Positions 2,170 to 61,483 of a DNA stretch of 64,000 bases are shown one piece after another. The position numbers were made by a program, and so were the translations under genes. Source of the DNA: an uncultured Candidatus Saccharibacteria bacterium. GTDB lineage: Bacteria > Patescibacteriota > Minisyncoccia > Phycocordibacterales > SIBU01. The number at the start of each line of letters is the position of its first letter. Within the stretch, counting starts at the first letter, position 1. Under the pieces are notes generated by a model. That model searched no databases and was not told where the DNA came from. It worked only from the letters and a program-made list of their open reading frames with translations. The stretch lies in the NCBI GenBank assembly GCA_964355335.1, contig CAYHDB010000001.1, positions 23,387 through 87,386 of the forward strand, written 5' to 3'.

Positions 2170-2609
2170 TTTCTTTTGACGATTTTAAAAAGGTGGAAAT
2201 AACGGTGGGGAAAATATTTTCCGCCGAAAAAGTGCAGGAGACGGATAAACTTTTAAAGCTCTCGGTGGACTTTGGTGCGAAGCAAAATCCCTCCACGCTT
2301 CAGAAAGCGGTGCTCCCTTTAGAAAAGGGAGAACAGGTAGATGTCACCACCCCTCAAATCCCCTCCTTAGAAAAGGAGGGGAGGCAAGAAGAAAGAGATG
2401 TTCGCCAGATTGTTTCAGGAATCTCCGCGTACTTCCCAGACCCTGCTGTTTTGGTGGGGAAGAAGTGTATGTTTGTCACAAATCTTGAACCACGTACAAT
2501 TCGCGGACTTGAGAGTAATGGTATGCTTTTTGCTGTATCGACTGAAGACGGTAAGTTTTCGTTGCTTGAACCTCAGGGAGATATTCCGGAGGGAACGAAA
2601 GCTAAGTAA
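2166..2609 (+). CDS. Stand-alone tRNA-binding domain protein (CsaA/Trbp111-like, resembling the MetRS C-terminal domain)
   Basis: KVEITVGKI...MFVTNLEPRTIRGLESNGMLFAV...GDIPEGTKA is an OB-fold tRNA-binding-domain signature. The ATGA overlap with ruvX suggests an operon. Confidence 0.7.
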   Translation: MISFDDFKKVEITVGKIFSAEKVQETDKLLKLSVDFGAKQNPSTLQKAVLPLEKGEQVDVTTPQIPSLEKEGRQEERDVRQIVSGISAYFPDPAVLVGKKCMFVTNLEPRTIRGLESNGMLFAVSTEDGKFSLLEPQGDIPEGTKAK

Positions 2610-11210: not shown

Positions 11211-11246
11211 AAAACCCCCGCCCGATTACTATCGGGCGGGGGTTTT
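11211..11246. terminator. bidirectional terminator hairpin between convergent genes
   Basis: aaaacccccgcccgat-tact-atcgggcgggggtttt. Confidence 0.75.
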
Positions 11247-13336: not shown

Positions 13337-14329
13337 GTGGAAACAGAAATTACAATAGAGGGAAAGTCATTTCACCTTGTAAAACATAGCAAACGAAGCG
13401 ATGTCGGAGTATATAGCTCGGGCGAGCTTTTTGTGAGAGTGGGGGAGATGAGTGTGATAGACGAAATGGTCAAGCTTCACAAAAAGTTTGATGAGTTCGG
13501 TTTTCCTGTGCCGGAAATTGTTGGCCGAGGAGAGATTGCCGGTCAAGGCTATTTTCTGGAGAAATCTTTCGGAGAAAAGTGTTTTAGTTACCTATTCAAA
13601 TATGATATTGAAAAACATGGGCAGATTTCTCCCGAACTTTTCGAAAAGTTTGTGGCGGTATCAGAGAAGTTTGCTAGAGCCCAGATACGTTCTGTTTGGG
13701 ATTCTTCCTTTATAAAAGGTCGTAGTCTGCGGAGAAACGTCGGCGAGAGTACCCGAGTCTGCGAGGGGGAGGGATTTCAAAATCCTCCGTCTCATCAGAA
13801 TGAGCCACCTCCTTTTACAAAGGAGGAATTTTCCGACACTGTATCAGTCGCTGGGTTGGTAAGACCCGAGGACTTAGCAGGGGAGTTGCCGGAACACAGA
13901 GAGAAGATTTTAAAACTTTTCGATGAGTCGGTAAAAGCGATGAGTAGGTTTCCTGTCGTTCTGACTCATGGCGATTTTAATCCACATAACCTGTTTCCTG
14001 ACGGAGTAATTGATTTTGAAAAGCCGTATCATGTTTCTGTTGGGTACGATTTGGTGACTAATATTTTTCACGCGAATTACTTTCCAAGAGGGGATGAATA
14101 TTCGTATTCCAAATTGTATTTTTTCAGTCAGGAACACGAGCGCTTGTATTATGAGCGCATTGATGCTGTTTTTGTTGAGGCCGGTTTGCCGAAGTTGTCC
14201 GATTATAAAAAGCATTTTGAGTACTGTAGGGCTGTTTGGCTGACGGCTCGCAACGAAGCTACGACGGAACCCGGCAAGAAGTTTCAGCAATGGCGTTATG
14301 AACTTTTTAAAAAGAGTTATTTATCCTAA
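13337..14329 (+). CDS. Phosphotransferase (APH/choline-kinase-like) family protein carrying an in-frame hairpin-element insertion
   Basis: VLTHGDFNPHNLFPDGVIDFE is a Brenner-type kinase motif. Nt 13748-13835 encode EGEGFQNPPSHQNEPPPFTKEEFSD and form a three-hairpin element also found at 43655, 51290 and 61340. Confidence 0.6.
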   Translation: METEITIEGKSFHLVKHSKRSDVGVYSSGELFVRVGEMSVIDEMVKLHKKFDEFGFPVPEIVGRGEIAGQGYFLEKSFGEKCFSYLFKYDIEKHGQISPELFEKFVAVSEKFARAQIRSVWDSSFIKGRSLRRNVGESTRVCEGEGFQNPPSHQNEPPPFTKEEFSDTVSVAGLVRPEDLAGELPEHREKILKLFDESVKAMSRFPVVLTHGDFNPHNLFPDGVIDFEKPYHVSVGYDLVTNIFHANYFPRGDEYSYSKLYFFSQEHERLYYERIDAVFVEAGLPKLSDYKKHFEYCRAVWLTARNEATTEPGKKFQQWRYELFKKSYLS

Positions 14330-14994: not shown

Positions 14995-15864
14995 ATGATA
15001 CAAAAAATCACGAAAGCTATTATTCCTGTCGCCGGTATGGGTACTCGTTTTTTGCCAGCCACTAAAGCACAGCCCAAAGAGATGCTCCCTGTGGTAGACA
15101 AGCCCACAGTGCAATACCTTGTGGAGGAAGCGGTTGCAGCGGGTATTACAGATATTATCTTTGTAACTGGCCGTGATAAACGTACCATAGAGGATCACTT
15201 TGATGTGGCACCAGGGCTTGAGAGGATGCTTGAAGAAAAAGGGAAGAAAGACGCGGCAAAGCTTGTGCACGACATATCGAATCTTGCTAGGTTCGCGTAC
15301 GTTCGACAAAAATATCCGAAAGGAGATGGCGATGCTATTTTGACCGCCGCACATCTAATCGGTAATGAACCGGTCGCTGTGCTTTTTGGTGATGATCTTG
15401 TTTTGAGTGATACTCCGGCTCTCAAGCAGCTTATGGAGGTGTATGAAAAATATGGAAAATCAGTTGTTGCGCTTGCGGAAGTATCTGACGAAGTGGTCCC
15501 CACAAAGGGAATTGTGAAAGGTGACAGGATTGACGATAAGGTGCTGAGGATAAGAGAGACAATAGAGAAACCTAAATTGGCCGACGCTCCTTCCAATCTC
15601 GCTGTCGTTGGAAAGTATATTATTACCCCAGAAGTTATCGAAGCACTCAAACACGTAAAAGTGAAGGAAGGTGAGGAACTTCGCCTTGCCCACGCCCTAG
15701 ATGCAGAGGCCAGGAAAGGTGATGTGTATGGTGCAAAACTTGAGGGTGAGTGGCTTGATTGCGGAAGTAAAATCGGTTTTCTTAGAGCGACTGTTCGGTA
15801 CGGGCTTTTACACCCTGAAACAAAAAAGGAACTAAGAGAATTTCTGAAGGATTTGAAATTGTAG
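14995..15864 (+). CDS. galU: UTP--glucose-1-phosphate uridylyltransferase
   Basis: KAIIPVAGMGTRFLPATKAQPKEMLPVVDKP...VAVLFGDDLV. Confidence 0.9.
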   Translation: MIQKITKAIIPVAGMGTRFLPATKAQPKEMLPVVDKPTVQYLVEEAVAAGITDIIFVTGRDKRTIEDHFDVAPGLERMLEEKGKKDAAKLVHDISNLARFAYVRQKYPKGDGDAILTAAHLIGNEPVAVLFGDDLVLSDTPALKQLMEVYEKYGKSVVALAEVSDEVVPTKGIVKGDRIDDKVLRIRETIEKPKLADAPSNLAVVGKYIITPEVIEALKHVKVKEGEELRLAHALDAEARKGDVYGAKLEGEWLDCGSKIGFLRATVRYGLLHPETKKELREFLKDLKL

Positions 15865-15870
15865 TATTTT

Positions 15871-16620
15871 ATGAAAATTACAAAGCTCGGACATTGTTGT
15901 TTAATTATAGAAATAACACCCTCCATTTTCGGAAAATCTCCCTTACCAAAGGGAGCACTGCATTCTGGTGCAGGAGGGTTGTTACAACCCCCCAAGGCGG
16001 CCCCCTTTGTTAAGGGGGATAGGGAGAATAAAACTGTACGGATAATGACCGATCCCGGAGCCTGGTCTGTGTCGCAAAATGAGGAGAAGGACATTGATTT
16101 TATTTTTATCACGCACGAACATCAAGATCATTTCCATCTTGATTCACTCAAAATAGTATTGAAAAATAATCCGAAGGCAAAAGTTGTTACCAACCGCGCC
16201 GTGGGGAAGTTGCTCGATACTGAGAAGATTCCACATGAACTTTTGGAGCACGGTGGAGAGGGGGAATACGGCGGAGTGCATATAGAGGGATTTGGAGAAA
16301 ATCACGCGACTGTATATCAGGATTTTGGACAGGTGCAAAATACAGGTTATTTATTTGCCGACAGATTTTTCTACCCCGGTGATGCGTTCTATAATCCGAA
16401 TAAACCAGTCGAGATTCTCGCTCTTCCTGTCGCGGGACCGTGGGTGAAGCTTTCCGAAGCGATTGATTATGCCAAATTGCTCAAACCGAAGGTGTGTTTC
16501 CCGGTACATGACGCTTTGCTTAAGTACAATCTTCCGGCACGGCTGGCTCCTCAAAAATTCCTTCCTCTCTCAGGGATAGAATTCGTAGATCTTCTAGAAG
16601 GTGTCACTAAGGCCTTTTAA
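15871..16620 (+). CDS. MBL-fold metallo-hydrolase with a hairpin-encoded insertion of about 40 aa near the N-terminus
   Basis: MKITKLGHCCLIIEI...FIFITHEHQDHF (HxHxDH). Between IEI and TVRIMTDPG, nt 15915-16040 form the hairpins ctcccttaccaaagggag and cccccttt-gttaa-ggggg. Confidence 0.7.
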   Translation: MKITKLGHCCLIIEITPSIFGKSPLPKGALHSGAGGLLQPPKAAPFVKGDRENKTVRIMTDPGAWSVSQNEEKDIDFIFITHEHQDHFHLDSLKIVLKNNPKAKVVTNRAVGKLLDTEKIPHELLEHGGEGEYGGVHIEGFGENHATVYQDFGQVQNTGYLFADRFFYPGDAFYNPNKPVEILALPVAGPWVKLSEAIDYAKLLKPKVCFPVHDALLKYNLPARLAPQKFLPLSGIEFVDLLEGVTKAF

Positions 16621-16689
16621 AAGGTACTCCCTAATCAGGAGTGCTCTTTACCCAAGTAAAGTTATCCCCATTGACATTTTTTAGCTATT

Positions 16690-16725
16690 TGCTACTCTTT
16701 ACTTGGGTAAAGAGTAGCAAATACG
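16690..16725. promoter_or_regulatory. Perfect palindrome of about 34 bp upstream of the trpR-like gene (candidate operator)
   Basis: tttgctactctttac-ttgg-gtaaagagtagcaaa. A half-copy ctctttacccaagtaaag lies at 16646-16663. Confidence 0.55.
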
Positions 16726-16742
16726 AATTACCCTGTATCGCG

Positions 16743-17060
16743 ATGAAAAAAACGAAAAAATCGAAGAAAACAAAGGCGAAATGGAGCATAAGCGATAGTA
16801 ACGCCTCGGCTCTTTCCCGGGCACTGCTCTCTATGAAGAGTGCTGAGGAGATGGGTATGTTTTTGCGTGATTTGCTGACAGAATCGGAAATTATCGAGTT
16901 TTCAAAGCGTTTTTATACCGCTCGGGCAATCGCTGAGAGCGTTCATTATGCAGGTATTGCGGAGGCTACGGGCTTAAGCTCTCGTACTATCGCTCGAGTA
17001 AAGCATTGGTACAATAATGGTAAGGGGGGTTACAAATTGGCCATTAAACGACAAAAATAG
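16743..17060 (+). CDS. TrpR-like / YerC-YecD family DNA-binding protein
   Basis: LLTESEIIEFSKRFYTARAI...HYAGIAEATGLSSRTIARVKHWYNNGKGGYK matches the YerC/TrpR family C-terminal HTH. Confidence 0.75.
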   Translation: MKKTKKSKKTKAKWSISDSNASALSRALLSMKSAEEMGMFLRDLLTESEIIEFSKRFYTARAIAESVHYAGIAEATGLSSRTIARVKHWYNNGKGGYKLAIKRQK

Positions 17061-17097: not shown

Positions 17098-17136
17098 TTA
17101 CCCGCTACTCTTTACCCAAGTAAAGAGTAGCGGGTA
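17098..17136. promoter_or_regulatory. Second perfect palindrome, reverse-complement core of the first, between the trpR-like gene and the LOG-family gene
   Basis: cccgctactctttac-ccaa-gtaaagagtagcggg. Confidence 0.55.
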
Positions 17137-39148: not shown

Positions 39149-42100
39149 ATGTCCGAAGAAAATATCAAGAAAAGTCCAATAGCCGATAGGGAAGAGTTGA
39201 TTTTGAAGACCTGGCAGGATAACCAGATTTTCAAAAAAACTCTCGAAAAGCCGTCACCAAAAGGCGAGTTTGTTTTTTACGAAGGTCCTCCCACGGCGAA
39301 CGGAAAACCCGGGATTCATCACCTCGAAGCACGAGCTTTCAAAGATGCTATCCCTCGATACAAGACGATGCAGGGTTTCCATGTACGCAGAAAAGGTGGA
39401 TGGGATACACACGGATTGCCTGTGGAACTGGCGGTGGAAAAAGAGCTTGGATTGAAATCAAAAAAAGACATTGAAGATTATGGTGTCGCGAAGTTTAACC
39501 AGAAATGTAAGGAAAGTGTTTGGACGTACGTGGATTTATGGAAAAAGTTCACGGAACGTATTGGTTTTTGGGTTGATTTGAACAATCCTTACGTCACCTA
39601 TTCGGCAAACTATGTCGAATCATTGTGGTCAATCCTTAAACGTGCCGACGAGAAGAAACTTTTGTATAAGGATTACAAGGTTGTGCCATGGTGTCCGAGA
39701 TGTGGAACAGCGCTTTCAAGTCACGAATTGGCACAGGGGTATGAGACAGTTAAAGATTTATCTTTAACTGTCAGATTCAGGATTCAGGATTCAAGATTCA
39801 CGAAGGGGGAGAATACCTATCTATTGGCGTGGACTACCACGCCGTGGACGTTACCTGGGAATGTCGGGCTTGCTGTTGGAGCAAAAATTAAATATGTAAA
39901 AGTGAAAGTGGGGGCGGAGGTTATTATTTTGGCTAAGGAACGCACAGAAAGTGTTTTGAAAGGGAAGGAATATAAAATTCTCGAGGAGTTCACGGGAGAA
40001 AAGCTTGTGGGTTTGGAATACGAGCCTCTTTACACATTTTTGAGAGATAGTTTGACCAAAAATCCCTCCACGAATAAGAATTCGGTGCTCCCTTTAGGAA
40101 AGGGAGAATTAAGAGACGAGGCGGGAAAACTGAAAAATGCGTTTAAAGTCTACGGAGCGGATTTTGTGACCACCACCGACGGTACGGGTATAGTGCATAC
40201 AGCCGTGATGTATGGAACAGACGACTTTGAGTTGGGTACAAAAGTCGGGTTGCCAAAATACCATTTGGTAAATGAAGATGGAACATTCAAGAAAGAAACC
40301 GGATTTTTGTCAGGAAAGTTTGTGAAGGACGAGGAAACGGCTGTCGATATCATCAAGGATTTGGCGCACCGGGGATTGCTTTTTGCCAAGGAAAAATACG
40401 AGCACAGCTATCCTTTCTGTTGGCGCTGTCATACCCCGCTTATCTACTACGCGAGGGATTCATGGTATTTAGCCATGAGCAAGTTGCGTAATGTGCTGGT
40501 CAAGGAAAACAAGAAAATCAATTGGGAGCCTGCTCATATTAAAGACGGGCGTTTTGGAGAATGGCTACGTGAGATAAAGGATTGGGCAATTTCTCGTGAA
40601 CGTTACTGGGGGACACCACTACCTGTGTGGAACTGTGAATCCTGTGGAAAAAAAGAGGTGTTGGGCTCGTATGCCGAAGTCATGTCGCGTACTGGTGGAG
40701 TTCTGACCAAGATTATCCTTGTCCGTCACGGTGAAAGCGAGAAGAATATAAAGAATGTTTTCTCTTGTGTTTTCGAAGGCTATCCTTTGACAAAATTGGG
40801 AGAATCGCAGGCTCGCAATGGAGTGAAGCTTCTCGGAAAGGAAAAGGTGTCTGCAATATACGCCTCGCCTGTCTTTCGCACAAAGCAAACCGCTGGAATA
40901 TACGCGAAGAAGCTGAAGAAAGAAGTGGTGGTGGACAATCGTCTGCGAGAGGTGGACAGTGGTGTTTGGGATGAAAAGCGTTTTGACGATGAGTGGGTGC
41001 TCAAGGAACAGAAAGCATACAAGAATCTTTCGCATGAAGGTTTTTATGTGGCGCCTAGAGGAAGTACGGGAGAAAGCTGGAAGCAAGTGGAGGATAGGGC
41101 AACGGATTTTTTCAAAGAAATTATAAAGAAACATAAGGGGGAGACGGTAGTTATCGTTTCTCACGAAGGACCCTTGGCGTTTTTGATGAGATACATTCAG
41201 GACGTTCCGATTGATGATATGAAAAGTATTTTCAGAAAGGGTTTGGTCAATGGCTTTGCTGTACCGAAGCTTGTATATATCGACAATTCAACGGAGAAGG
41301 AGTTTAATCCTCACCGCCCGAGGATTGATGAAGTAGAGTTCCCTTGTAAGTGTGGAGGAAGAATGAAACGAGTAAAAGAGGTCGTGGATGTATGGTTTGA
41401 TTCCGGCGCGATGCCTTTTGCTCAGGACCACTATCCTTTCGAGAACAAGGCAATTGTTGAAAAGGAAAGATTTCCCGCCGATTATATCTCAGAGGCGATA
41501 GACCAGACTCGCGGGTGGTTCTACACACTTCATGCGATAGGGAATATCTTAGGTAAAGGATTTGCCTACAAAAATGTTATTTGTCTTGGCCATATTTTGG
41601 ATGCACAGGGTAAGAAGATGTCGAAGTCTATCGGAAATGTCGTGGATCCATGGCAGATGATAAACAAGTACGGCTCTGACGCTCTTCGCCTTTGGATGTA
41701 CTCGGTGAACCAGCCAGGGGAATCGAAGAACTTTGACGAGAAGACCGTGGACGAGATTGTAAAGAAATATTTCAATCTTGCCTCGAACGTTCTCGCTTTC
41801 TACCAGCTGTATTCTTCTTCTGCGGTCAATGGTCAAATGTCACATGTCAAAAGCTCTCATGTTCTGGACATTTGGATAATTGCTAGATTAAATCAGCTTA
41901 TTGGTGAGGTGACGAGCGGGCTGGATAATTACAAATTGCTTGAACCGACTCGCGCAATCAGAGATTTTATCGCTGATCTTTCACAGTGGTATCTTCGACG
42001 TTCACGCGAGCGAATTAAAAATGGTGGGCAAGATGGAGAAGAGGCTCTGGCTACATTACGGTTTGTGCTTTGTGAGTTATCCAAACTTATGGCTCCTATG

Positions 42101-42697
42101 GCGCCATTCTTTGCCGAATTTTTATACAAGGAGATTGGGGGAGAAAAAGAAAGTGTCCATTTGGAAGAATGGCCGGAGGTAAAAGTAAAAACTAAAAGCG
42201 AAAAACTTAAAATATTGGAAGAAATGGAAGAGGTGAGGAGAGTAGTGTCGCTTGCTTTGGAGCAACGTGCTAAGGCCAACATAAAAGTTCGTCAGCCCCT
42301 TTCTTCTCTTAAGCTTAAATCTAAAATCATAAATCTTAAATCCGGAGTGTCTGATTTGATAAAAGATGAAGTAAATGTAAAAGAAATAATTTTTGATTCA
42401 ACAATTCAGAATGAAGTGGAATTAGACACGACTATTACTCCGGAATTAAAGGAGGAGGGGGATGTTCGAGAGCTTGTCCGGGCAATTCAGGATCTGCGCA
42501 AAACTTCGGGATTTAACGCAATCGATGTTGTTAATCTTACTGTCGAGACTGATGAGAAAGGAAAAAAGTTTATAGAGAAGTATCTGAATGAATTGATGAA
42601 GGCTACACAACTGAAGAAAATTGCTCACGGCCCATCTCTAGATGGAGGGGAAGTCTTGATGGATGGATTTTCTCTAAAAATCTCGGTTTCGAAATAG
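39149..42697 (+). CDS. ileS: Isoleucine--tRNA ligase with an embedded histidine-phosphatase (PGAM-like) domain
   Basis: IleRS motifs: PPTANGKPGIHH (HIGH), WCPRCGTAL, KKMSKSIGN (KMSKS), and zinc-knuckle halves WNCESCG / CKCGG..VVDVWFDSG. Between the halves, at about nt 40690-41310, lies RHGESEKN...SAIYASPVFRTKQTA...VVIVSHEGPLAFLM, a branch-1 histidine-phosphatase signature. Confidence 0.85.
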   Translation: MSEENIKKSPIADREELILKTWQDNQIFKKTLEKPSPKGEFVFYEGPPTANGKPGIHHLEARAFKDAIPRYKTMQGFHVRRKGGWDTHGLPVELAVEKELGLKSKKDIEDYGVAKFNQKCKESVWTYVDLWKKFTERIGFWVDLNNPYVTYSANYVESLWSILKRADEKKLLYKDYKVVPWCPRCGTALSSHELAQGYETVKDLSLTVRFRIQDSRFTKGENTYLLAWTTTPWTLPGNVGLAVGAKIKYVKVKVGAEVIILAKERTESVLKGKEYKILEEFTGEKLVGLEYEPLYTFLRDSLTKNPSTNKNSVLPLGKGELRDEAGKLKNAFKVYGADFVTTTDGTGIVHTAVMYGTDDFELGTKVGLPKYHLVNEDGTFKKETGFLSGKFVKDEETAVDIIKDLAHRGLLFAKEKYEHSYPFCWRCHTPLIYYARDSWYLAMSKLRNVLVKENKKINWEPAHIKDGRFGEWLREIKDWAISRERYWGTPLPVWNCESCGKKEVLGSYAEVMSRTGGVLTKIILVRHGESEKNIKNVFSCVFEGYPLTKLGESQARNGVKLLGKEKVSAIYASPVFRTKQTAGIYAKKLKKEVVVDNRLREVDSGVWDEKRFDDEWVLKEQKAYKNLSHEGFYVAPRGSTGESWKQVEDRATDFFKEIIKKHKGETVVIVSHEGPLAFLMRYIQDVPIDDMKSIFRKGLVNGFAVPKLVYIDNSTEKEFNPHRPRIDEVEFPCKCGGRMKRVKEVVDVWFDSGAMPFAQDHYPFENKAIVEKERFPADYISEAIDQTRGWFYTLHAIGNILGKGFAYKNVICLGHILDAQGKKMSKSIGNVVDPWQMINKYGSDALRLWMYSVNQPGESKNFDEKTVDEIVKKYFNLASNVLAFYQLYSSSAVNGQMSHVKSSHVLDIWIIARLNQLIGEVTSGLDNYKLLEPTRAIRDFIADLSQWYLRRSRERIKNGGQDGEEALATLRFVLCELSKLMAPMAPFFAEFLYKEIGGEKESVHLEEWPEVKVKTKSEKLKILEEMEEVRRVVSLALEQRAKANIKVRQPLSSLKLKSKIINLKSGVSDLIKDEVNVKEIIFDSTIQNEVELDTTITPELKEEGDVRELVRAIQDLRKTSGFNAIDVVNLTVETDEKGKKFIEKYLNELMKATQLKKIAHGPSLDGGEVLMDGFSLKISVSK

Positions 42698-43450: not shown

Positions 43451-43654
43451 GTCGCCTTTTCGGAGAACGACGCACGGGTGAGCGTGGAATCACCTTTTCA
43501 GCATCCTGAGTACACCGGTTTTTTGTGTATGTAGAATTAACCTTACGTTTTTCTCGCCCCTCCGTGTTTGCTTACGCGGAGGGGTTCAGTGTTTCAATAT
43601 TTTTAGTATACTGTAATTTCGGCAATCTTAATTCCTCCTTTGAAAAAGGAGGTG

Positions 43655-43765
43655 CCGTCCACAGGTGCACATCATCTGCCGATGTGCCCGAGTCATCGAG
43701 GCGGAGGATTTCAAAATCCCTCGTCTCATAAGAATGAGCCACTCCCTTTTGAAAAGGGAGAATAA
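43655..43765. repeat. Modular three-hairpin element, family 4, copy B
   Basis: ggcggaggatttcaaaatccctc + gtctcataagaatgagcc + actcccttttgaaaagggagaa. Confidence 0.7.
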
Positions 43766-51155: not shown

Positions 51156-51289
51156 TTTGTTCTTTCGTTCCGCGTTAGTCCGTCAATATTCAGACGGACT
51201 TTTCTTTTGCCTTTATTCTCTGTCGTTGGTATCATTCGAAGGCAACTTTATTCTCCCTTTGATAAAGGGAGCCCGCCCGTACCGAAACG

Positions 51290-51412
51290 GCACCTGCCCG
51301 ACTACATTCAGGCGGGCGTTCGGGCGGGTACCGCATTCTGACGCGGGGGAGGGATTTAAATCCTCCGTTTTATCAAACTAAAACACCTCCTTTTATAAAG
51401 GAGGAATCAGAC
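51290..51412. repeat. Modular three-hairpin element, family 4, copy C, ending in an SD sequence for the M16 peptidase gene
   Basis: gcccgactacattcaggcgggc + gggggagggatttaaatcctcc + gttttatcaaactaaaac + cacctccttttataaaggaggaa, 9 nt before the ATG at 51417. Confidence 0.7.
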
Positions 51413-61339: not shown

Positions 61340-61483
61340 TTTATAATTCTCCCTTTCCTAAAGGGAGGGGACCGCTTGCGGTGAGGGATTTAAATCCTCT
61401 GTCCTCGCCCGCCAAAGTTTTGTTTTGCAAAATTTAGGCGGGCGAGCCGATTCGGCCACCTCCTTTAGGAAGGAGGAACATGA
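61340..61483. repeat. Modular hairpin element, family 4, copy D, upstream of recA
   Basis: cctttcctaaagggagggg + ggtgagggatttaaatcctct + cgcccgccaaag...ttaggcgggcg + cacctcctttaggaaggaggaa. Confidence 0.7.

Follow-up and report, generated by a model that had tools for sequence, protein, structure and literature searches.

How did a hairpin-rich segment of about 120 bases come to lie in frame near the start of a metallo-beta-lactamase (MBL)-fold hydrolase in a 64-kb stretch of DNA from an uncultured Candidatus Saccharibacteria bacterium (contig CAYHDB010000001.1; the whole stretch analysed is called the window below)? The host gene is a UPF0173/UlaG-like MBL-fold metallo-hydrolase coding sequence (15871–16620, plus strand; 249 aa in the list of open reading frames, ORFs), whose product runs MKITKLGHCCLIIE, then the inserted ITPSIFGKSPLPKGALHSGAGGLLQPPKAAPFVKGDRENKT, then VRIMTDPG.... 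We consider it likely that this segment copies, in composite form, a non-autonomous hairpin repeat of modular build that abounds in Patescibacteria (the candidate phyla radiation, CPR) and spreads horizontally to a preferred target.

That the segment is an insertion follows from its absence in most orthologues. The 120 best homologues, from Parcubacteria, Taylorbacteria and similar lineages, are mostly 211 aa long, and empty orthologues run from LxIEExG straight into VRIMTDPG. The N-terminus could be parsed in 76 homologues, 62 of which have exactly eight residues (LxIEExGV) where the window protein has 46; all 62 retain an intact turn segment of identical length. Among 80 further orthologous loci from metagenomes, 74 were empty, six were occupied and none carried an out-of-frame insert. 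In the window gene the inserted codons 15–55 (ITPS...RENKT; 15913–16035, plus strand) replace the three-residue beta-turn of the empty orthologues, which leaves the gene 38 codons longer than those of the 211-aa proteins, and the insert is stop-free with a length that is a multiple of three. The same holds for the inserts of the 14 occupied orthologues and of the six occupied metagenome loci, and the 14 codons upstream are intact, in frame and near the family consensus in 14/14 occupied orthologues. The preliminary description of this DNA, which had noted an interrupted N-terminus and placed the insertion at 15915–16040, is thereby borne out with slightly shifted boundaries: the 211-aa orthologues lack the segment, and the Pfam match of the ORF (Lactamase_B_3, PF13483, 6e-20) misses its N-terminal part, with profile positions 16–160 aligned with residues 55–213 and the first 15 profile positions left stranded upstream. 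It had also raised the prospect that homologues carry the same segment. This applies to P0002, whose segment is near-identical, and in a looser sense to 12 others, which have different family members at the same site, while most orthologues are empty; moreover, the occupied orthologues are not each other's closest relatives, which argues for insertion rather than an ancestral segment.

The sequences on either side of the insert are those of a real MBL-fold enzyme. Upstream, the conserved 14 N-terminal codons (MKITKLGHCCLIIE; 15871–15912, plus strand) are in frame (alignments A1 and A5) and contribute strands 2–5 and 11–15 of the modelled fold; downstream, the HEHQDH metal-binding motif (16114–16131, plus strand) is intact, as had been reported, and columns H82, E83, H84, D86 and H87 are invariant. 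A structure model, one of the checks named in the preliminary description, was made with AlphaFold (AF2) from 74 orthologues and reached a mean predicted local distance difference test score (pLDDT) of 85. The well-modelled core exceeds 90, while residues ~16–55 form a low-confidence loop (pLDDT ~48) without secondary structure between strands 11–15 and 56–60. The best Foldseek match of the model is the MBL protein TM_1162 (3x2y), which confirms the MBL fold, and the nearest solved structures are TM_1162 and 3kl7; together, the Lactamase_B_3 domain, the HxHxDH motif and the alpha-beta/beta-alpha fold assign the protein to the MBL-fold hydrolases. In the model, the insert position is shown to be a surface turn linking two N-terminal beta-strands, with the catalytic core untouched.

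The inserted DNA belongs to a repeat family with further members in the window and in other genomes, in agreement with the relationship suggested earlier. A covariance model (R1) built from 27 full-length copies, all from genomes other than that of the window, finds a match within the MBL insert that spans the full length of the model (15935–16021, minus strand; 38.9 bits, E 1.7e-7; nhmmer 22.3 bits), and the plus strand scores nearly as high (35.1 bits) because the element is palindromic. The insert shows the hairpin pattern of the family: terminal hairpins of the form C[CT]CC[CT]TT-loop-AA[AG]GG[AG]G, a central hairpin of the GGAGGATTT/AAATCCCTCC type and variable hairpins between them. The consensus of the 27 copies is ~98 nt long and reads ATTCCTCCTTTnnTAAAGGAGG-TG-[variable hairpin]-GGAGGATTTnnAAATCCCTCC-[variable hairpin]-CTCCCTTTnnnAAAGGGAGAAT; the canonical element, of ~95–105 nt, consists of ATTCCTCCTTTnnnAAAGGAGG, a variable hairpin, GGAGGATTTnAAATCCCTCC, a variable hairpin and CTCCCTTTnnnAAAGGGAGAAT. 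The two terminal hairpins and the central hairpin (H1/H3/H5) are conserved across the 27 aligned copies. The right-hand variable hairpin occurs as 174 distinct sequences that nevertheless keep their folding potential (minimum free energy −6.4 vs −2.2 kcal/mol in shuffles, P 2e-26). The canonical element is made of two inverted halves of ~45 nt each, which are also found alone: 55 of the 153 nhmmer hits are half elements, broken at the tip of the central hairpin (model position 49/50). Extra hairpin modules (CCCGCCCG...CGGGCGGG and CCTGCCTACCGGCAGGCAGG) sit inside elements or stand alone.

Within the MBL insert, these modules can be followed from end to end. At the left end lies AACACCCTCC (15915–15924, plus strand), a 3' arm of the central-hairpin type that, by comparison of occupied sites, forms the left end of a half element as in L118–L121. 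It is followed by a small variable hairpin, ATTTTCGGAAAAT (15925–15937, plus strand; DNA fold and sequence), and a terminal-type hairpin, CTCCCTTACCAAAGGGAG (15938–15955), read as S-P-L-P-K-G. The DNA fold then gives a variable hairpin, CTGCA-TTCTGG-TGCAG (15958–15973), at a place where the L014 and L047 elements have TGCA(C/T)AAGAATGCAG. The central hairpin, GAGGGTTGT-TA-ACAACCCCCC (15974–15993), is a B-type variant of GGAGGATTTnAAATCCCTCC, and its GGGTTGT/ACAACCC form is found also in L092 and L105. Beyond a degenerate spacer (15994–16000) stands a second terminal-type hairpin, CCCCCTTTGTTAAGGGGG (16001–16018), read as P-F-V-K-G and identical in the terminal hairpin of the L128 insert; both this hairpin and CTCCCTTACCAAAGGGAG had been named in the preliminary description. 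Finally, ATAGGGAGAATAA (16019–16031, plus strand) combines the remnant of a terminal-hairpin 3' arm with the canonical right end GGGAGAAT(AA), as judged against L118, L119 and L127 and the family consensus. The junction-spanning peptides of the predicted product are ...LIIEITPSIFGK and DRENKTVR. The hairpins CTCCCTTACCAAAGGGAG and CCCCCTTTGTTAAGGGGG match each other across strands with three mismatches, where shuffles lead one to expect 0.00–0.03 such matches. The region 15900–16050 folds as a row of small hairpins (DNA z −2.66, with 2/200 shuffles equally good; RNA z −1.72, with 11/200 equally good); folding energy alone is only moderately unusual, and membership in the covariance model is the stronger statistic. 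From a comparison with simpler inserts found at this site in other orthologues, we infer that the window composite would have arisen from an L118-type half element that acquired a complete inverted element, the palindromic terminal hairpin being common to both.

Copies of the same family occur in other genes as well as between genes. The window holds about twelve C[CT]CC[CT]TT-loop-AA[AG]GG[AG]G hairpins, grouped as seven elements, and the six besides the MBL copy score 32–81 bits with R1. Copy E1 (2216–2384, plus strand; 35.7 bits) lies in frame in a tRNA-binding-domain ORF (2166–2609) and splits its Pfam tRNA_bind match in two. Copy E2 (13701–13829; 59 bits) is full length and in frame in an APH-like kinase ORF (13337–14329), where it amounts to a 42-aa insert that the syntenic orthologues L123 and L126 lack. 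A half copy, E4 (40053–40109, plus strand; R1 and nhmmer, from the window sequence alone), leaves the frame of an IleRS-like ORF (39149–42697) open. The remaining copies are intergenic: E5 (43631–43763, plus strand), the best match in the window (81.5 bits, E 1e-17); E6 (51250–51407; 55 and 21 bits), which has extra hairpin modules; and E7 (61346–61479; 58 bits). With the MBL hydrolase, four of the seven elements lie inside ORFs, all stop-free, so the recurrence of in-frame cases described earlier stands, and its count of three becomes at least four. A wider nhmmer census of 930 kb from 127 sequences found 153 elements, 34 of them (22%) within ORFs of at least 150 codons and in both orientations (19 vs 15). 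Pfam domains mark real genes in nine of ten element-bearing ORFs checked, and the genes concerned include those for DNA polymerase I (PolA), a UvrD-like helicase-nuclease, UvrA, a Mur ligase, MurB, glycosyltransferases and an intein-containing protein. The element peptides recur as SSFxKGG...EDLNPS...LPLxKGE in one orientation and SPFxKG...PPLxKEE in the other.

A scan for the pattern CTCCCTTTNNNAAAGGGAGAAT with one genome per species returned at least 116 stretches, and among the matches listed ~79 are labelled as CPR, 11 are an unlabelled "bacterium" and ~26 bear other labels. The CPR labels listed comprise Saccharibacteria, Parcubacteria, Taylor-, Nomura-, Harrison-, Lipton-, Gracili-, Moran-, Uhr- and Portnoybacteria, and the richest single genome among the matches listed has at least 12 stretches. 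In Rfam 15, only tRNAs reach the gathering threshold in the window, and the best sub-threshold match over two elements has E >=0.095; the terminal hairpin pattern has no match in viral contigs. Open-access papers and bioRxiv yielded precedents among Rickettsia palindromic elements (RPEs), repetitive extragenic palindromic sequences (REPs) and miniature transposable elements with inverted repeats (MITEs), and nothing on such elements in Patescibacteria. On these comparisons, the repeat family and its host clade appear to be new, and the kind of element already known. As a separate observation, the stretches with other labels are mainly from Dehalococcoidia/Chloroflexi, which have a different repeat built on the same hairpin (L007, L009, L015, L018, L019, L058, L074, L075, L083 and L086): CCCCCTT...AAGGGGG hairpins precede a CTCCCTTTnnnAAAGGGAGAAT hairpin, which is followed by GAGAGGGATTT. 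The hairpin design thus recurs outside the CPR.

Turning to the history of the element, the MBL site allows it to be compared directly with the history of its host gene. A tree of 90 orthologues, 76 of them with a parsed site, places the 14 with inserts at exactly the MBL turn among empty ones, scattered over the tree. For just one of these 14 is the nearest neighbour also occupied, where chance would give 2.0. Several occupied orthologues are 82–84% identical to an empty one and 73–77% identical to their best occupied counterpart. The orientation at occupied MBL sites is always the same, with the terminal hairpin on the 3' side, while the architectures differ: B-type halves (L120/L128 and L121/L131), an A-type half (L207), an L118-type half (L118 and L127), tandem halves (L119), a half with an extra module (L208) and the composite (the window and L001).

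The composite is the clearest case. The window and L001 inserts agree at 95% of nucleotides and at 92.5% of third positions, whereas the rest of the gene reaches 63% and 36%, respectively (binomial P ~1e-16); codons for identical residues differ in 3/37 cases within the insert and 84/141 outside it. Protein P0002, which carries the near-identical insert, ranks 44th of 89 in closeness to P0001. The near-identical block, TAACACCCTCC...GGGAGAATAA (15914–16031; pairwise DNA alignment A2), has sharp junctions, with the bases just outside it as diverged as the rest of the gene, and such boundaries beside diverged flanks argue against homologous replacement of a gene segment. A second unit behaves likewise: L118 and L119 share 50/51 positions and each matches L127 at 46–47/51, in host genes whose third-position identity is 43–48%. 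Synonymous sites in the hosts of such near-identical units are saturated. Conversely, two Hainich groundwater contigs (L120:10001–10726 and L128:613–1293) have MBL core codons that are 100% identical, and their single base difference falls within the 54-nt insert (CCCCCCTT vs CCCCCTTT), which does not suggest unusually strong constraint on the insert. Across 200 loci, 13-mers of the window insert are common only to L001 and to generic hairpin arms. A near-identical insert in a diverged gene means that element history is decoupled from gene history, and the alignments show this decoupling in both distribution and conservation at the sequence level. Together, these observations suggest a site-specific, horizontally spreading insertion.

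We propose that the element would spread horizontally among co-occurring CPR genomes and integrate at a preferred target, here the MBL turn position, probably helped by a trans-acting enzyme that is directed by hairpins or single strands and works in the manner of REPs and their REP-associated tyrosine transposases (RAYTs) or of IS200/IS605. Modules would later be shuffled between copies. The insert would be read through and, as predicted, displayed as a disordered surface loop rich in Pro, Gly, Lys and Ser, which the enzyme would tolerate and still work. In-frame copies would be what selection leaves behind, and the reading frames of the family are in keeping with this: full-length copies have 1.43 of six frames open vs 1.44 in dinucleotide shuffles, so that in-frame copies are best seen as survivors of selection. 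The idea that the element is built to be coding-compatible was rejected on the same figures. Also rejected was a role as Shine-Dalgarno donor, for which the outer arm (AAAGGAGG/AAAGGGAG), resembling an ideal ribosome-binding site, had made the element a candidate: long ORFs start 4–14 nt downstream of the outer arm in 1.6% of cases vs 3.1% at random positions. A bolder form of the proposal, which we put forward only tentatively and regard as somewhat doubtful, is a homing-like, gene-less hairpin transposon that moves among distant CPR genomes of the same habitat, enters a recognisable target, here the beta-turn codons of the MBL gene, to the nucleotide and in a fixed orientation, and repeatedly rewrites surface loops of essential proteins throughout the CPR. 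Its mechanism may be guided by single strands or hairpins, or may involve an enzyme class so far unlinked to such elements.

Several points weigh against the horizontally spreading repeat as proposed. The orthologue tree was built by neighbour joining from 211 columns. The exact composite was not found elsewhere, either in a metagenome scan for GGAGGGTTGTTACAACCCCCC or in a word-indexed protein search with the insert peptide. The best homologue of the window gene is just 71% identical and no empty site is at hand in a close relative, so that the recency of insertion is drawn only from sequence conservation. A scan of 40 ORFs in the window turned up neither a transposase nor a RAYT-like gene. 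Neither a clean target-site duplication nor a target motif could be derived by comparing flanks: those of 28 full-length copies show no consistent duplication, and to the left of half elements the flanks are rich in purines or AAT, with no fixed target word. At the MBL site, (A)AT/ATAA repeats stand 115 nt apart, a distance not divisible by three; a simple target-site duplication there was rejected because a clean insertion of that length would shift the frame, and the repeats may belong to the element itself. Finally, all occupied sites share the junctions GAR|RTAA...ATAAR|, which also fits a single old insertion followed by module turnover.

These identical junctions, together with the uniform orientation, also speak for the strongest alternative: one ancient insertion, inherited ever since, whose hairpins are kept by nucleotide-level purifying selection as an RNA or DNA signal, for example in control of translation or mRNA stability of the MBL gene, with the empty sites reflecting many precise losses. 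In its favour, four of the five differences between L118 and L127 fall in hairpin loops, and hairpin potential is strongly maintained across the family. Yet occupied orthologues are scattered among empty ones, and imprecise loss would not restore an intact turn in 62/62 cases. Loops and spacers, on which pairing sets no constraint, are near-identical too, both in the window–L001 pair and in the L118–L119 pair, while other family copies vary freely in them; moreover, in one population whose core gene is 100% identical, the only substitution falls in the insert. A signal acting in the mRNA also sits poorly with embedded copies in both orientations relative to the mRNA (the 19 vs 15 of the census), and no terminator or promoter sites were found within the insert. 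We therefore regard an ancient inherited insertion as improbable.

It is very improbable that the insert lies outside the protein, with the Met of RIMTDPG as the start of translation and the element as part of a 5' leader, or with the insert removed or bypassed by RNA or ribosome, in the style of T4 gene 60 or mitochondrial byp elements. Gene callers do pick this internal ATG in ~30/120 homologues, which yields 191-aa proteins, and bypassed hairpin-rich in-frame inserts are known in yeast mitochondria. Three of these ~30 entries were checked, and the four loci inspected are empty genes whose N-terminus is intact and in frame and whose start codons were miscalled (L187 is alike); the 191-aa homologues were on these grounds rejected as a sign of frame-disrupting inserts. 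Neither a downstream start nor bypass would require stop-free inserts in multiples of three behind conserved N-terminal codons, as seen in all 14 occupied orthologues and the six metagenome loci, and the lack of out-of-frame inserts at the 80 metagenome loci speaks against both. The N-terminal strands, furthermore, are part of the fold. The true start further downstream that the preliminary description had considered is for these reasons unlikely.

Less probable still is that the segment is no selfish DNA but a functional loop of this lineage, for instance a new binding surface, kept by protein-level selection. The surface position of the insertion and the conservation of its peptide (92.5% between P0001 and P0002) would suit such a loop, but synonymous sites are as conserved as the amino acids, the same DNA family occurs between genes and in unrelated proteins in both orientations, and the loop is predicted to be disordered. 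Although repeats are known to cause chimeric joins when genomes are assembled from metagenomes, a repeat wrongly joined into the gene is hardly credible here, given inserts at the same position in independent NCBI, ENA, JGI and Logan assemblies, continuous reading frames and flanks that both come from the same diverged orthologue.

Additional observations concern the elements and their surroundings. The module CCCGCCCG...CGGGCGGG occurs alone and in frame in an MBL orthologue, at a second loop (L207:1342–2070, aa 52–64), inside the beta-turn insert of another orthologue (L208:1829–2542) and in window elements at 51272–51335 and 11215–11242. The CCTGCCTACCGGCAGGCAGG module seems, at the protein level, to underlie LP..RQAG inserts at a third site in P0024, P0048 and P0029. 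Elements often stand head to tail or abut the GGGAGAAT end of another (L115:2700–3150, L045:4261–4351, L076:5038–5144 and L119:76–807), and ...GAGAAT or ...AAT often directly precedes half elements, which hints that new units may be added beside sequences resembling the element's own end. A phmmer search of 1.84 billion representatives with the E2 peptide gave just two hits, the query being too short for power; the only significant one, P0121 (1000 aa), has four separate matching stretches and may be one protein with several element copies. The IleRS-like ORF that hosts E4 (1182 aa) also has a complete His_Phos_1 domain (aa 522–693) embedded in its class I tRNA-synthetase catalytic region.

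Around the MBL gene itself, an antisense ORF of 305 codons (15195–16112, minus strand) overlaps the NTP-transferase gene and the start of the MBL gene and is open across the insert. It is most likely a shadow ORF; long spurious ORFs thus occur in the window and can mislead ORF-based calls of gene context. Directly downstream of the MBL gene lies a TrpR-like gene (16743–17060), flanked by copies of the palindrome CTCTTTACCCAAGTAAAG, which occurs three times (16644–16661, 16695–16714 and 17108–17127; 0.03 copies expected by chance). By sequence and position, these palindromes look like putative operator sites for the TrpR-like repressor.

The genomes of CPR bacteria are very small, and unexplained lineage-specific insertions are frequent in the proteins they encode. 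A mobile hairpin repeat that enters PolA, UvrA, Mur enzymes, aminoacyl-tRNA synthetases and an MBL hydrolase in frame could explain some of these. Such a repeat can lead gene callers, searches for homologues and the assembly of metagenomes astray, and it shows how selfish DNA can give rise to new surface loops. The feature worth following is that near-identical units in diverged orthologues have repeatedly, and in a fixed orientation, come to occupy one codon: their presence in non-sister orthologues makes target-specific, horizontally spreading non-autonomous elements directly testable.

Among known systems, RPEs (Ogata et al. 2000, as summarised in PMC10969869) are described as in-frame selfish palindromes in housekeeping genes. 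The CPR family resembles them in being a short (~100–150 bp) palindromic repeat without a transposase of its own in a reduced-genome, host-dependent lineage, with many copies in frame in unrelated housekeeping genes and peptides placed at tolerated positions; in-frame palindromic insertion with a peptide at a tolerated, surface position is what was found at the MBL site. The likeness is one of behaviour, and RPE membership is not claimed. The CPR family differs in its host phylum, Patescibacteria, in being a mosaic of five or more small hairpins from two inverted halves, and in occupying the same codon in non-sister orthologues with near-identical units. To our knowledge, such same-codon occupation decoupled from gene history has not been reported for RPEs.

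REPs and their inverted doublets (REPINs), mobilised by RAYTs, offer a second comparison. They too comprise hairpin singlets and inverted doublets of ~100 nt in high copy number, arranged in tandem or mosaic clusters, with structure kept while stems vary and with no transposase inside the element, and the inverted halves and singlets of the CPR family have this form. REPs, however, are essentially extragenic and have a GTAG or CGTC head (PMC3733652), whereas the CPR hairpins have the feet GTG-, GTA- or CCA-CTCCC (alignment A3), 22% of the copies lie within genes, and the 40 window ORFs scanned include no RAYT gene. Intragenic bacterial MITEs such as ERIC/RU-1, Nezha and Correia/NEMIS (PMC2759123, PMC10969869) share with the CPR family a non-autonomous nature, terminal inverted repeats and occasional in-frame fusions; the terminal repeats of the CPR family read ATTCCTCCTTT... 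/ ...AAAGGGAGAAT, with a weak extension TCTTA/TAAGA. In the CPR family, by contrast, the terminal repeats are themselves hairpins, several CPR class-level lineages are spanned, the 28 copies show no consistent target-site duplication and no parent insertion sequence was identified. As for elements derived from IS200/IS605, the CPR family has hairpins and a constant orientation at the MBL site, without a fixed target word to the left of its half elements. In mitochondria, GC-cluster, double-hairpin and byp elements and coding palindromes (PMC6649704) are likewise mobile hairpin modules inside protein-coding genes, sometimes at recurrent sites; unlike the CPR family, they are organellar, some are bypassed and not translated, and they bear no sequence relation to it. 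By analogy of structure and behaviour, the closest counterparts of the putative CPR element are Rickettsia palindromic elements or REPIN/MITE-like repeats.

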